From Escherichia coli (GTDB taxonomy: Bacteria > Pseudomonadota > Gammaproteobacteria > Enterobacterales > Enterobacteriaceae): a stretch of 64,000 nt of DNA. A program made the position numbers and the translations under genes. Every line of letters begins with the position of its first letter. Within the stretch, counting starts at the first letter, position 1. The notes beneath the pieces were generated by a model. The model was not told the origin of the DNA. It saw nothing but the letters and a program-made list of their open reading frames with translations, and searched no databases. The stretch lies in assembly GCF_045037415.1 (NCBI RefSeq), contig NZ_CP173438.1, one strand, 5' to 3'. Shown here piece after piece: positions 45,182 through 56,368 of this stretch.

Positions 45182-45820
45182 ATGCCCGGGCGCTTTGAAC
45201 TAAAACCAACCCTGGAGAAAGTCTGGCACGCGCCGGACAATTTTCGCTTCATGGACCCGCTGCCGCCGATGCATCGTCGGGGGATCATTATTGCCGCCAT
45301 TATATTGGTGGTCGGATTTCTGCTTCCATCTGATGATACGCCCAACGCGCCGGTGGTGACGCGTGAAGCGCAGTTAGATATTCAGTCGCAATCACAACCG
45401 CCGACAGAAGAACAGCTGCGGGCGCAATTAGTCACACCACAAAATGATCCTGATCAGGTGGCTCCGGTCGCTCCAGAACCTATACAGGAAAGCCAGCCAG
45501 AAGAACAGCCGCAAACTACCCAAACACAACCATTCCAGCCAGATAGCGGAATTGATAATCAATGGCGCTCTTACCGTGTCGAACCCGGTAAAACGATGGC
45601 GCAGCTGTTCCGCGACCACGGACTGCCCGCTACCGATGTCTATGCAATGGCGCAGGTAGAAGGCGCGGGTAAGCCGCTGAGTAATTTGCAAAACGGGCAA
45701 ATGGTGAAAATCCGCCAGAACGCCAGCGGCGTGGTGACGGGCTTAACCATTGATACGGGGAATAATCAACAGGTCCTGTTCACCCGCCAGCCGGATGGCA
45801 GTTTTATTCGTGCGCGGTAG
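45182..45820 (+). CDS. ytfB: Cell-division-associated protein YtfB (OapA family)
   Basis: ORF track frame 45146..45820; start at [16 protein letters not shown]; 212 aa. Confidence 0.9.
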
Positions 45821-46451
45821 ATGAAGGGTCAACCAAAAGCCAGCTAAGGATTGTCTCTTTGATGACCTTACGTCTGGCTTCCAGTGCCTGGGGGGAAACC
45901 ATACTGATATGATAAACCAGGCCAAGCGTATGCTGGTTGATCAAATAATATCCGCCAAGCGCAGCAATATTAATATTCACCTGCAATGGGTCGATATCTG
46001 GCTTAAAAATATTTTGTTTCTTCCCTTCATCCAATAAGGATTCCATTAACTGCAAGTGCGCATGGTTAATTTCTAAAAGACGCTGTGATTTTGCATAATG
46101 CACACCCTTACTTTGATTTTCACTATGCACAATTTTTAAAAACCAGGGATTAGAAATATAATAATCCCATGTAAAATCGATTATTTTCTCAATGGCTTTC
46201 TGTGGCGGAAGATCTGAGAAATCAAGGGCCTTTTCTTTTTGTCGAATATCGTTCCAGGTATATTCCAGTACTTCGATAAATAAATTTTCTTTATTACCAA
46301 AGTGGTGATAAACCGTCTGTTTACTGCACCCCGCGGCCTTGACGATATTATCGACTCTGGCCCCTTCGTAACCATATTCGGCAAATTCATTAACCGCGCA
46401 TAACAGCAGCTTTTCTTTCAGGCTCTGTACGTTGCTGGTATCAAGATACAT
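45804..46451 (-). CDS. TetR/AcrR-family transcriptional regulator
   Basis: ORF track 45804..46523; start placed at [51 protein letters not shown] (TetR HTH); divergent from adjacent operon; 3' end overlaps ytfB by 17 nt. Confidence 0.8.
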
Positions 46452-46573
46452 AACGCTTCCCCACGACCTCTTCGTGGTGACTATCATAACCTGATTTGAT
46501 TTCAGCTTCAGAAAAAAGGGCAAAAACTTGTACTTTCATCAGGTTATCAAATGTCCTGTGATCGCCATCGCAT

Positions 46574-46595
46574 ATCAACCAACTAGATGGTTGAT
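46574..46595. promoter_or_regulatory. Inverted repeat atcaacca-actaga-tggttgat; candidate TetR operator in divergent promoter region
   Basis: 8-bp perfect inverted repeat with 6-bp spacer between the TetR gene and the SDR gene. Confidence 0.4.
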
Positions 46596-46663
46596 CTTTT
46601 TATCCTCCAGTCGCAAGCTAATCATCACTAAGGAAACAAAATTCAAAAAAAGAGAGCTATTGT

Positions 46664-47455
46664 ATGAAATCCACTCGTCCTGTTGCCGTGATTACCGGAG
46701 CCGCTCGTGGTATTGGAAAGGGCTGTGCGCTGGAGCTTGCGCGTGGCGGATTTAATCTGCTGATTAATGATCGTCCGGATGCGGATAGCGTAGAAAAATT
46801 ACATGCCACACAACAAGAATGTCTGGCGGAAGGCGTGGAAGTGATTTGCTTCCCTGCTGATGTGGGCGATCTCTCCCTGCATGAAGAGATGCTCGACGCA
46901 GCGCAAAACCAGTGGGGACGTCTGGACTGCCTGCTCAACAACGCAGGCATTTCAGTGAAAAAACGCGGTGACCTTCTCGACCTCGAACCAGACAGCTTCG
47001 ACCAAAATATTGCCATTAACACCCGCGCACCGTTCTTCCTTGCTCAGGCATTCAGTAAGCGCTTACTGGCACAGCCGAAACCGGAAGCAGAACTGCCGCA
47101 CCGCTCGATTATTTTTGTCAGTTCCATCAACGCCATCATGCTGGCGATGAATCGCGGCGAATATACCATTGCCAAAACTGCCGTCTCTGCCGCTGCTCGT
47201 CTGTTTGCTGCTCGCCTTTGTAATGAACAAATTGGCGTATATGAAGTGCGTCCTGGTCTCATCAAAACCGATATGACTATTCCGGCAACGGCCTATTACG
47301 ACGAACTGATTGCCAAAGGTCTGGTGCCGTGGGGACGTTGGGGTTATCCGGCGGATATTGCTTCCACTGTCCGCGCGATGGCGGAAGGTAAACTTATTTA
47401 CACCTGTGGTCAGGCGGTCGCCATCGACGGCGGCTTAAGTATGCCGCGCTTCTGA
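46664..47455 (+). CDS. Short-chain dehydrogenase/reductase (3-oxoacyl reductase-like)
   Basis: ORF track 263 aa; TGAARGIG cofactor motif; YxxxK (YTIAK) catalytic motif. Confidence 0.8.
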   Translation: MKSTRPVAVITGAARGIGKGCALELARGGFNLLINDRPDADSVEKLHATQQECLAEGVEVICFPADVGDLSLHEEMLDAAQNQWGRLDCLLNNAGISVKKRGDLLDLEPDSFDQNIAINTRAPFFLAQAFSKRLLAQPKPEAELPHRSIIFVSSINAIMLAMNRGEYTIAKTAVSAAARLFAARLCNEQIGVYEVRPGLIKTDMTIPATAYYDELIAKGLVPWGRWGYPADIASTVRAMAEGKLIYTCGQAVAIDGGLSMPRF

Positions 47456-47464
47456 GGCTGAATC

Positions 47465-54987: not shown

Positions 54988-55493
54988 TACTCTTTATTAT
55001 CAGGATCTTCTTCAATTGCCCGGCTAACCCTTTCCAGACTCGCTATTTCGGTAAATGGTGGGGCTGCAACATCAATGCGATTATCAAGAAACTCTCCAGC
55101 GTCTTCACGTTTGTATCGAAGAGCCCCAACCCGATAAAGATCATGAACACCTAGTAGATAATCAGACTCATAAAGGTGGGAGTCTTTATCACATAACCCG
55201 TCTCGAATATCCCTCTCAAAACGACGCTTCATTAGCATACGCCCCCAACGATCCGGGCAGGAATCACTAAATGCACCAAATTTATCCTTTGGAGGAATTG
55301 GGTACTGTGCTCCCTCATACAACATTATTTCAGGATCTAACTGAATGAAATTAAGTGAAGGATCTGCAAGCGCCTTTTTATCGTACTCAAACTCAAATAT
55401 CTCACGCGCCCGAGTGCGACGACTGTGTAAATAACCAATACGCGCAGGACCATCCAGGCCTTCCCAATCCGCATACACTCCGATTAATGCCAT
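54987..55493 (-). CDS. HipA N-terminal-domain protein (putative antitoxin/partner of the kinase core)
   Basis: ORF track 168 aa; motifs FSDSCPDRWGR and YRVGALRYK resemble HipA N-terminal subdomain; AAGGA 9 nt upstream of ATG. Confidence 0.6.
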   Translation of the reverse strand: MALIGVYADWEGLDGPARIGYLHSRRTRAREIFEFEYDKKALADPSLNFIQLDPEIMLYEGAQYPIPPKDKFGAFSDSCPDRWGRMLMKRRFERDIRDGLCDKDSHLYESDYLLGVHDLYRVGALRYKREDAGEFLDNRIDVAAPPFTEIASLERVSRAIEEDPDNKE

Positions 55494-55495
55494 AA

Positions 55496-55987
55496 TTAAT
55501 TTCCTTTTAACGGTTTTTTTATCGGTTTTAATAGTGCAGCAAGAGAGGTTGATGTTTCTCCTGTAATAGATGGCGTCGAGCCTTCTGCCAGTGCTGTTAA
55601 ATCCGTGGTGAGATGACCTTCTTTCTCGTGCCTCATCTGCAATGAGGCTGTCTGAGAACCTTCTTCATTCTTACTTGATACACGAGACAGCCCTCTTTTT
55701 TTAATCAAACGGGAATCCTGGAGCTGACGCCCTAAGTCGTCTTCAGCTGCAAGCTTATTTAAATCCGTTTCCAGGCCCAAAACCTGCATCACAGACAAAT
55801 ATGCCCCTATCGTGACCCCTGCACTTCCTGACTCCAGAGAGCGCAATGTTATTGGCGACATCCCAGCACGTTCAGCAACTTGCTTTGCGGTAAGCCTGCG
55901 TCGTAAACGAGCAAGTTTCAGCCGCTCACCAAATTCACTAAGCATCTGATTCGTATAAGGGAGTAACGGTGCTGTTTTTTTACCCAT
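55496..55987 (-). CDS. XRE-family HTH regulator (HipB-like) with ~90-aa low-complexity C-terminal tail
   Basis: ORF track 163 aa; HTH region [36 protein letters not shown]; first gene of the three-gene module. Confidence 0.7.
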
Positions 55988-55990
55988 AGT

Positions 55991-56103
55991 GATAATATTT
56001 TATCTTTTTATGGCTATGATAGCCATAATATTAGCATTTATTGGATTGAACGCACCTGCAAAGCGTTCAAGATTACGAAAGTGATGATATTTTATCTTTT
56101 TAT
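55991..56103. repeat. 21-bp direct repeat (gatRatattttatctttttat) in two copies 92 bp apart, bracketing the palindrome and a hairpin (ttgaacgc...gcgttcaa)
   Basis: Copies at ~55991-56011 and ~56083-56103 match at 20 of 21 positions. Confidence 0.5.
56010..56026. promoter_or_regulatory. Inverted repeat atggctat-g-atagccat upstream of the HTH gene; candidate autoregulatory operator
   Basis: 8-bp perfect inverted repeat 23-39 nt upstream of HTH start codon. Confidence 0.4.
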
Positions 56104-56336
56104 ATATAAAAACAATAAAATAACAGCACATTCATATATAACATATTGTTTTTATTATCATACAAGTGAGACGATCGCTGTATTGATGCTTTTGTCGTGT
56201 TTTACGCGTAAAAAACATGACACGAACTACCAGCGGCGAGGCTGGGGGCCAGGTATGGGTACTGCGAACTTTTTATAAAAGGAATAGCAAGAGATTTATG
56301 GAGGGAACGTCTGTTTCTGCAGTTTTTATCACTTAA

Positions 56337-56368
56337 AAGCAAAACGCCGACCACTGGTCGGCGTTTTT
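56337..56368. terminator. Bidirectional Rho-independent terminator downstream of rplI
   Basis: aaaa cgccgac cactg gtcggcg ttttt: hairpin flanked by A-run and T-run. Confidence 0.7.

Follow-up and report, generated by a model that had tools for sequence, protein, structure and literature searches.

For deoxyribonate, a sugar acid, the enterobacterium Klebsiella michiganensis has been proposed to use a degradative route with acyl-CoA intermediates (PMC6365646). We examined a locus of Escherichia coli that may follow a similar logic, namely, the segment between ytfB and rplI in a 64,000-nt stretch of contig NZ_CP173438.1 (hereafter, the window, meaning the whole stretch that was analysed). In this segment, a TetR-type regulator gene lies divergent from a six-gene operon encoding a short-chain dehydrogenase/reductase (SDR), a triosephosphate isomerase (TIM) barrel protein, a crotonase, a coenzyme A (CoA) transferase, a flavoprotein, and a major facilitator superfamily (MFS) transporter, and the operon is followed by a hipBA-type toxin-antitoxin cassette. 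The deoxyribonate cluster of K. michiganensis M5al and the operon of the window have in common MFS import and proposed degradation of a CoA thioester, with use of a CoA transferase plus a beta-hydroxyacyl-CoA dehydrogenase, whereas a CoA synthetase, a thiolase, a lactonase, and a glycerate kinase are confined to M5al (PMC6365646) and an FrdA-like flavoprotein, a TIM barrel, and a crotonase are confined to the window; the comparison is one of logic, not of homology. The reading that we favor, and in which we have considerable though not full confidence, is that the segment consists of an ancestral operon for the catabolism of a sugar-acid-like compound (45804-54129), which K-12 has lost in two deletions, together with a separate hipBA cassette.

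An earlier note on this DNA had regarded the interval as one that was expanded, relative to K-12, by a replacement-type island. That the segment is accessory relative to K-12 is borne out by comparison with that strain, but the direction of change is reversed for 45804-54129, as seen from outgroup synteny, matching synonymous divergence, carriage by 57% of E. coli genomes, and a relic of the operon in K-12. Homologous loci were located by scanning for the flavoprotein in one genome per species and then running tblastn with all proteins of the window. Escherichia whittamii and Entomohabitans teleogrylli display the same gene order (cycA–fklB–ytfB–TetR–SDR–TIM barrel–crotonase–CoA transferase–flavoprotein–MFS–rplI), the operon of Entomohabitans teleogrylli being 70 to 74% identical in nucleotides to that of the window; E. 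albertii NBRC 107761 has this order as far as its contig reaches; and in the cryptic-clade Escherichia sp. MOD1-EC7003, the 3′ part of the operon adjoins rplI. By the Nei-Gojobori method, the synonymous divergence (dS) of operon genes from E. albertii and E. whittamii amounts to 0.26 to 0.68, compared with 0.39 to 0.52 for the neighboring ytfB, and the ratio of nonsynonymous to synonymous divergence (dN/dS) is 0.00 to 0.24 in every comparison (0.00 to 0.04 for the SDR gene). The similarity of operon dS to that of ytfB and the low dN/dS argue for a functional unit that shares the divergence history of its flank. On these comparisons, the TetR-to-MFS unit occupied the ytfB–rplI site before the Escherichia species diverged and has been under purifying selection.

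The claim of the earlier note that K-12 has only ytfA and yjfZ at this position agrees with the K-12-derived strain Origami2-DE3, in which a TetR fragment annotated as “missing N-terminus” is accompanied by yjfZ. The K-12 interval shares with the window its chromosomal site, its ytfB and rplI flanks, and the 3′ 402 nt (two-thirds) of the TetR gene; the last of these is ytfA, which is indeed a truncated copy of the TetR gene, as had been surmised, with homology ending at window position 46206 and the N-terminal ~82 codons gone. (A survey of the TetR family lists ytfA as variable in its occurrence among E. coli and as found in every E. fergusonii and E. albertii strain that it covered.) Past 46206, K-12 has four unrelated bases, followed by a 102-nt stretch that matches codons 31 to 64 of the SDR gene at 79 to 85% identity and contains in-frame stops, and its homology to the yjfZ-type haplotype resumes 101 nt beyond the MFS stop codon. 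It differs from the window in lacking 546 bp (the 5′ end of the TetR gene, a palindrome upstream of the operon, and the start of the SDR gene) and a further 7.3 kb (the remaining SDR gene through the MFS gene) and in having yjfZ where the window has hipBA. Since K-12 keeps the decayed 102-nt SDR relic, it represents the derived, deleted state and, judged from these alignments, is a double-deletion derivative of an arrangement consisting of operon, MFS gene, and yjfZ.

The K-12-type relic itself (L002:2712-2813) is 15 to 21% diverged from every extant allele examined, and its flanks are 98 to 99% identical. Derivation of the relic from the divergent E. albertii operon allele was considered and dropped, there being no significant match, and its closest counterpart is that of E. 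whittamii (85%). Many operon-less strains, including those with O157-sized genomes, have an element of the IS200/IS605 family (IS609 type; tnpA plus the RNA-guided endonuclease TnpB) inside the TetR remnant, as in strain 1919D62 (L100:1256-2897); as a candidate for the deletion junction this element was rejected, being a secondary insertion within the remnant.

In the list of open reading frames (ORFs) of the window, exactly 10 ORFs of at least 140 amino acids (aa) lie between ytfB (45182-45820, plus strand) and rplI (56389-56838, minus strand), the number that the earlier note had counted as far as the rplI terminator. Two of them are halves of one frameshifted hipA, leaving nine genes, of which eight are intact. 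The features of the segment, with the evidence for each, are as follows.

45804-46451, minus strand: TetR/AcrR-family regulator, 215 aa (NCBIfam, RefSeq, and Pfam on an orthologue).
46574-46595, no strand: 22-bp palindrome, candidate TetR operator (inverted-repeat search and cross-species conservation).
46664-47455, plus strand: SDR, 263 aa, first gene of the operon (NCBIfam NF009386 and motifs).
47465-48307, plus strand: xylose-isomerase-like TIM-barrel protein, 280 aa (structure matches and AlphaFold2 [AF2] model).
48317-49093, plus strand: crotonase-family enoyl-CoA hydratase, 258 aa (NCBIfam and Glu motifs).
49103-50644, plus strand: fused family-I CoA transferase, 513 aa (YdiF alignment and NCBIfam FadX).
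50641-52713, plus strand: stand-alone flavin adenine dinucleotide (FAD) flavoprotein, 690 aa, with the SdhA/FrdA/NadB fold (Pfam, AF2, and Foldseek).
52806-54083, plus strand: MFS transporter, 425 aa, last gene of the operon (TIGR00893).
54093-54129, plus strand: intrinsic terminator of the operon and left edge of the variable cassette site (15-bp stem, then T-run).
54226-55493, minus strand: HipA-family kinase toxin pseudogene (RefSeq flag and alignment to intact alleles).
54226-54987 and 54987-55493, minus strand: HipA fragment ORFs (ORF list).
55496-55987, minus strand: HipB-like helix-turn-helix (HTH) antitoxin/repressor, 163 aa, intact (TIGR03070 and Pfam on orthologues).
55988-56335, minus strand: AT-rich upstream region of the hipBA cassette, with repeats; its right end is the cassette boundary (repeat search and haplotype alignments).
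56341-56367, minus strand: intrinsic terminator of rplI, bounding the variable site on the right in all haplotypes (12-bp stem).

The RefSeq annotation of the identical region in strain razor3 agrees with this inventory, except that both HipA ORFs are treated as one “frameshifted” pseudogene. Its product names, in order, are TetR/AcrR regulator, “3-ketoacyl-ACP reductase,” sugar phosphate isomerase/epimerase, enoyl-CoA hydratase, acyl-CoA:acetate/3-ketoacid CoA transferase, FAD-binding protein, MFS transporter, HipA-family toxin pseudogene, and HTH regulator. The TetR gene is convergent with ytfB and overlaps its 3′ end by 17 nt (45804-45820), as previously reported. The absence of integrase, transposase, and tRNA genes was likewise upheld: neither the ORF list nor the RefSeq annotation contains a transposase or integrase ORF in the segment, and a tRNA scan of the segment returned none. 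The junctions of the segment fall at two terminators, where neither duplicated sequence nor flanking repeats were found; a promoter and terminator scan of the segment was no richer than one of shuffled sequence, save for these two landmark terminators; and an Rfam scan detected no element inside the segment. The sole Rfam match lies outside it: an RpsF leader (RF02893, 110 bits) at 57826-57910, 5′ of rpsF, as expected for the rpsF-priB-rpsR-rplI operon.

To estimate carriage, each module was searched separately in 5426 complete E. coli genomes, counting places that covered at least 80% of the query. The enzyme core occurs in 3112 of the 5426 genomes (57%), the MFS gene in 1684, a three-gene tripartite ATP-independent periplasmic (TRAP) transporter that replaces the MFS gene in 1446, the hipBA cassette in 1040, and yjfZ in 2513; the sum for the two transporters, 3130, accounts for the core count. 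Four main arrangements are seen in annotated examples, and subtraction gives ~19% of genomes for that of the window (operon, MFS gene, and hipBA), ~12% for operon, MFS gene, and yjfZ, ~27% for operon and TRAP genes, and at least 34% for the K-12 type (TetR remnant and yjfZ). The exact ten-ORF arrangement is a minority state, whereas the operon is the majority state in E. coli; of the supposition that most E. coli genomes carry the same ten genes, which the earlier note had offered as grounds for abandoning its reading, the part concerning the full set fails and the part concerning the operon core holds. In strains Ec55 and S2 and in NZ_OZ040331.1, an otherwise 100% identical match to the segment is split into two pieces; for the latter two, the annotation places an IS1-family transposase within the matching stretch, namely, in the hipBA region of S2 and in the MFS gene of NZ_OZ040331.1. 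Such splits suggest that the segment is still being eroded in the clone of the window.

Acquisition of the whole 10.5 kb as a horizontally transferred replacement island, in at least two events that expanded a short K-12-like interval, is an account that we regard as very improbable. It can draw on the absence of the segment from K-12, on true separate imports in the form of the hipBA cassette and the TRAP module, on hipBA homologues that are 73 to 82% identical across Enterobacter, Yersinia, Pseudomonas, and Burkholderia, and on heterogeneous composition, with AT-rich TetR, MFS, and hipBA genes. Composition is in fact uneven across the segment: against a GC content of 0.514 for the window overall, the TetR gene has 0.40 (0.43 at third codon positions, GC3), the MFS gene 0.47, hipBA 0.44 to 0.46 (GC3, 0.33 to 0.38), and the spacers 0.27 to 0.39. 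However, the enzyme genes of the operon core, at 0.49 to 0.55 (GC3, 0.49 to 0.58), are near the window average and native-like, and the operon, including its MFS gene, is syntenic in four other Escherichia and Entomohabitans lineages, has a dS equal to that of its flank, has left TetR and SDR remnants in K-12, lacks mobility genes, tRNA, and flanking repeats, and has its core in 57% of complete E. coli genomes. Absence from the site in sister species and outgroups, as would mark an island, was found only for hipBA, with respect to E. whittamii, and not for TetR through MFS. For 45804-54129, the island account is thus largely refuted, and the supposed mosaic of at least two acquisitions holds for the right end only, the bulk of the segment being ancestral. 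Similarly, the view of the AT-rich right arm as separately acquired applies to the hipBA cassette, which is absent in E. whittamii and replaced by yjfZ in other E. coli strains, but not to the MFS gene, which is part of the ancestral operon. The segment is, on our reading of an ancestral operon, ordinary pan-genome variation around an uncharacterized operon and is not new in kind.

The edges of the variable right end fall, by alignment, at the operon terminator and the rplI terminator. On the left, haplotypes diverge just past the operon terminator (54093-54129), whose hairpin is common to the yjfZ and E. whittamii haplotypes, with homology stopping just after it; on the right, all haplotypes regain homology at window position 56335/56336, the foot of the rplI terminator hairpin, where all of them share AAAGCAAAACGCCGACC...GGTCGGCGTTTT. 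The site is empty in E. whittamii, whose two terminators are separated by ~40 nt, and elsewhere the gap is occupied by yjfZ (other E. coli) or by hipBA (the window and some E. albertii). The site equivalent to that of yjfZ, which is missing from the haplotype of the window, is ~54130-56335. Published as a “conserved signature” target for quantitative PCR of E. coli and Shigella (PMC11057252), yjfZ, which lies at L002:2978-3772 in a K-12-type strain, is present in fewer than half of the complete genomes and absent from the haplotype of the window, such that a yjfZ-based assay would miss many strains of the extraintestinal pathogenic E. coli (ExPEC) type.

The position following the enzyme genes is similarly interchangeable, being filled by either the MFS gene or the TRAP system, which is of uronate type. 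In the TRAP haplotype, identity to the window drops from 96% to 66% to 53% over the final ~300 nt of the flavoprotein gene; the TRAP genes therefore came joined to the 3′ end of a divergent flavoprotein orthologue, implying linkage of transporter and enzyme in the donor before the transfer. At the other end of the same gene, a 250-nt patch (50646-50895) is only 83 to 84% identical to two other E. coli haplotypes that are 96 to 98% identical to the window on either side, and it looks, from this pattern, like a short recombination import in the lineage of the window. Beyond E. coli, a MaoC dehydratase gene follows the MFS gene in E. albertii and Entomohabitans. E. albertii GCA_027565275.1 (L099:8001-13523) is without the crotonase gene and has the MaoC-type dehydratase gene after MFS, and Entomohabitans has a crotonase gene plus an ORF homologous to the MaoC gene after MFS; from this distribution, a hydratase step seems to be required in the pathway. 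In the same E. albertii genome, the CoA transferase, flavoprotein, and MFS genes are 78% identical in nucleotides to the window, and the hipBA cassette with its rplI-side flank is 94.5% identical, from which it follows that hipBA has moved between divergent operon backgrounds.

The TetR gene is divergent from the co-directional genes of the operon, which are separated by gaps of 9, 9, 9, −4, and 92 nt and followed by a single terminator after the MFS gene; with its divergent regulator and tightly spaced genes, this is the architecture of a TetR-regulated catabolic operon. The regulator matches TetR-family models of NCBIfam, including Bacillus-type FadR (1.6e-12), and its E. albertii orthologue has the Pfam domains TetR_N and TetR_C_29. 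Roughly 70 nt upstream of the SDR start codon lies the palindrome ATCAACCAACTAGATGGTTGAT (46574-46595), which is deleted in K-12. Except for a central T/C, all 22 bp are invariant in E. coli, E. whittamii, E. albertii, and Entomohabitans, whereas the surrounding intergenic region diverges, making this palindrome the candidate TetR operator.

Several of the encoded enzymes can be placed with some precision. The SDR scores 420 bits against NCBIfam NF009386 (cutoff, 250), and its translation contains the TGxxxGIG and YxxxK motifs. The crotonase matches NCBIfam enoyl-CoA hydratase models at values to 2.8e-44 and has both Glu motifs of hydratases (GGGIELAL and NPEVMLG). The CoA transferase aligns over its full length with E. 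coli YdiF (PDB 2AHU; E = 7.8e-116) and matches NCBIfam FadX at 5.7e-115; E324 falls, within a VE(T/Q)G motif, on YdiF E333, as in family-I enzymes, and we take E333 to be the catalytic Glu that forms the enzyme-CoA thioester. Window protein and YdiF thus share a fused alpha-beta architecture and the catalytic Glu and are paralogues that differ in genomic context and partner enzymes.

The TIM-barrel protein and the flavoprotein yield good models (predicted local distance difference test [pLDDT] values of 91 and 83.5, respectively, with AF2), and structure searches with both found no characterized close relative. The TIM barrel is 50% identical to the uncharacterized Sinorhizobium meliloti SMc04130 structures 3QC0/3JU2; its next structural neighbors by Foldseek are IolI, ketose 3-epimerases, the TIM-barrel/HPPD fusion 5HMQ, YcjR, and AsbF, and its alignment contains invariant Glu, Asp, and His columns, consistent with a putative metal-dependent isomerase, epimerase, or dehydratase of a keto sugar or cyclitol. 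The flavoprotein, whose gene overlaps that of the CoA transferase by 4 nt, contains Pfam FAD_binding_2 (1.2e-27) and resembles FrdA/SdhA over its full length (Foldseek TM-score, 0.6 to 0.77 over ~670 columns at 14 to 18% identity). It has the FAD_binding_2 domain and the full four-domain fold of the SdhA/FrdA/NadB family, with capping and helical domains, and its H437 and R469 align with the substrate-carboxylate His and Arg of NadB (H351 and R386), but it is ~100 residues longer and belongs to a tightly conserved orthologue group of its own, with members 54 to 59% identical in Planctomycetota, Lentisphaerota, and Alphaproteobacteria. Its NCBIfam scores are all far below cutoff and neither the ORF list nor the annotation contains a gene for an Fe-S partner subunit in the cluster; these observations, together with replacement of the QFH histidine of NadB/FrdA by Gly, indicate that the fold is shared but that the protein is not an orthologue of fumarate reductase or NadB.

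Both importers resemble those of sugar acids. The MFS transporter belongs to the anion:cation symporter (D-galactonate transporter) subfamily (TIGR00893, 1.1e-93) and has an orthologue of 78% aa identity in Entomohabitans. The binding protein of the alternative TRAP system, WP_000695886.1 in a strain of the TRAP haplotype, has its best matches (E = 1e-57 to 6e-72) among a set of TRAP binding-protein structures, of which 4N8Y and 4X8R hold galacturonate and glucuronate (PMC11668362). At 73 loci in other taxa, recurrent neighbors of the flavoprotein are GMC and Gfo/Idh/MocA oxidoreductases, members of the SDR and TIM-barrel families of the operon, an aldehyde dehydrogenase, sugar ABC transporters, LacI regulators, and a KDG-kinase-like protein; about a dozen of these loci have the CoA transferase and crotonase pair of the operon beside the flavoprotein. 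In Yersinia alsatica (L017:2865-12043), a related cluster of TetR, SDR, Gfo/Idh/MocA dehydrogenase, TIM-barrel, MFS, and flavoprotein genes is free of CoA enzymes and adjoins genes for gluconate 5-dehydrogenase and gluconokinase. This context points to keto-aldonate-type chemistry for the trio of SDR, TIM barrel, and flavoprotein.

Based on these gene contents, the operon likely serves, under TetR repression, to take up a sugar-acid-like carboxylate and to catabolize it via CoA thioesters. In the scheme that we propose, TetR without ligand would sit on the 22-bp palindrome and repress the six-gene operon; the carboxylate would enter via the MFS transporter or, in other strains, via the uronate-type TRAP system; and the CoA transferase would make the CoA thioester, probably recycling CoA from the product or from acetyl-CoA. 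The crotonase would then hydrate or dehydrate the thioester, the SDR would oxidize or reduce a beta-hydroxyl or keto group, the flavoprotein would introduce or remove a C-C double bond, and the TIM barrel would isomerize or dehydrate a keto intermediate. More tentatively, and with a greater chance of being wrong than right, the operon and the flavoprotein orthologue group from E. coli to Planctomycetota may define an undescribed, beta-oxidation-like CoA-thioester route for uronate-like sugar acids or cyclitol carboxylates.

Certain points weigh against the favored reading of an ancestral sugar-acid operon. A literature search found no experiment or publication on the operon; the substrate class is based on membership in transporter families at roughly 40% identity and on gene neighborhoods; binding of TetR to the palindrome is predicted; and the haplotype shares were obtained by subtracting separate searches and not by joint tabulation. 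The cluster is without a thiolase, lyase, or kinase and, hence, has no obvious link to central metabolism. Moreover, the flavoprotein has Gly in place of the QFH histidine, and Yersinia, Pseudescherichia, and Mangrovibacter have the set of SDR, TIM barrel, flavoprotein, and MFS genes without any CoA enzyme; because clusters of its relatives are devoid of CoA enzymes, the flavoprotein need not act on a CoA ester.

Other substrates have also to be considered. As the automatic names suggest, the operon could be a beta-oxidation set for short-chain fatty acids or ketone bodies that has nothing to do with sugar acids, a view favored by the likeness of the CoA transferase to YdiF and Staphylococcus aureus FadX, of the crotonase to short-chain enoyl-CoA hydratase models, and of the TetR protein to Bacillus FadR. 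We consider this unlikely, given that the cluster has neither an acyl-CoA dehydrogenase nor a thiolase, that its dehydrogenase is of the FrdA/NadB type and not of the acyl-CoA dehydrogenase family, that a sugar-type TIM barrel is present, that the importers are of the sugar-acid or uronate type, and that orthologues reside in carbohydrate-type neighborhoods. Alternatively, the flavoprotein, with its fumarate-reductase fold, might serve as an enoate or enoyl-CoA reductase in a pathway that disposes of electrons in the anaerobic gut by reducing a cyclic carboxylate (e.g., shikimate or quinate to cyclohexanecarboxylate). The structural neighbors of the TIM barrel do include AsbF, a probable 3-dehydroshikimate dehydratase, and the enzyme set (CoA activation, crotonase, SDR, and flavoprotein) may resemble the Streptomyces collinus genes leading from shikimate to cyclohexanecarbonyl-CoA. 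Nevertheless, a partner for electron input is not encoded in the vicinity (neither an Fe-S subunit nor a cytochrome or FMN_bind domain), and many orthologues occur in aerobic Alphaproteobacteria beside oxidases and dehydrogenases, which leaves the reductive pathway quite unlikely. For our preferred interpretation, catabolism of a sugar-acid-like carboxylate, the within-species swap of MFS and TRAP importers should make the substrate experimentally tractable.

The hipBA cassette has the organization of known hipBA modules (K-12 hipBA and O127 hipBST), with an HTH gene that immediately precedes a HipA_C kinase gene in the same operon, a 2-nt intergenic gap, and repeats in the upstream region, and it differs from them in that its kinase is distant from solved Hip kinases and its toxin gene is frameshifted. 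The HTH protein matches TIGR03070 (couple_hipB, 3.1e-07), with Pfam HTH_31 found on orthologues, and its 163 aa make it about twice as long as HipB. The best PDB matches of the kinase are HipT chains (E = 2e-8), with K-12 HipA not among its PDB matches at E ≤ 1e-3; the group to which it belongs, at 73 to 82% identity, spans many Proteobacteria; and PADLOC, applied to the HipA protein, made no defense-system assignment. Upstream of the HTH gene are a 24-nt direct repeat, AGTGATAATATTTTATCTTTTTAT (55988-56011 and 56080-56103, 92 nt apart, with a one-base difference), and a 10+10 palindrome (56008-56028), which are possible HipB-type operators.

The kinase ORF is not intact in the copy of the window: a 1-nt deletion between 54990 and 54989 creates the sequence TAATG, by which a gene of 422 codons is broken up into ORFs of 168 and 253 aa, and repairing the deletion in silico restores the 422-codon frame. 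Intact 422-aa HipA proteins are present in the database from E. coli, Shigella, and E. albertii, and those of E. coli and E. albertii occupy the same site. Among 11 complete E. coli genomes inspected for their alleles, hipA is intact in three and has the deletion of the window in two; in four others, a G has been added to the run of seven G at nt 556, in another, codon 127 is a nonsense codon, and in the last, an A is missing at nt 1077. The HTH antitoxin gene is intact in all 11; cryptic-clade Escherichia keeps only a 138-nt relic of hipA. By this allele survey, hipA has been inactivated independently at least four times in different lineages, and intact copies are in the minority.

Such a pattern corresponds to the usual picture for transferable toxin-antitoxin cassettes, in which decay of the toxin follows fixation in the chromosome. 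It is scarcely probable that the frameshift is instead no loss at all and has produced a three-part system resembling hipB-hipS-hipT, in which a 168-aa N-terminal fragment would be accompanied by a 253-aa kinase core translated by coupling at TAATG. That the lesion makes an exact stop/start overlap, that the 253-aa ORF retains the Gly-rich loop GGSLGGARPK and the DHLRNHG and YDLNP motifs, that the cassette has matches of at least 99% identity in about 1000 genomes, and that short Hip kinases of 279 to 346 aa with a separate HipS protein exist in nature (PMC8262856) all fit such a system. But the split falls at residue 169, and the HipS/HipT boundary is at about residue 100; there is no Shine-Dalgarno sequence at normal spacing; RefSeq calls the gene a pseudogene; and the unrelated lesions elsewhere (+G at nt 556, nonsense at 127, and −A at nt 1077) are typical of the neutral decay of a dispensable toxin.

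At the cassette site, the independent inactivations of the toxin gene, with the antitoxin kept, form a compact natural series. On the practical side, a marker proposed for all E. coli and Shigella, yjfZ, is absent in about half of complete genomes. The operon itself is among the larger conserved enzyme clusters of E. coli for which no published function was found. Using K-12 as the reference reverses the reading of this locus: the apparent island is an ancestral operon that most E. coli have retained under purifying selection and that the laboratory strain no longer has. If the proposed function is true, this catabolism would be within the capability of some 57% of E. coli, among them ExPEC lineages and Nissle 1917, and its absence from K-12 would account for its having gone unnoticed.

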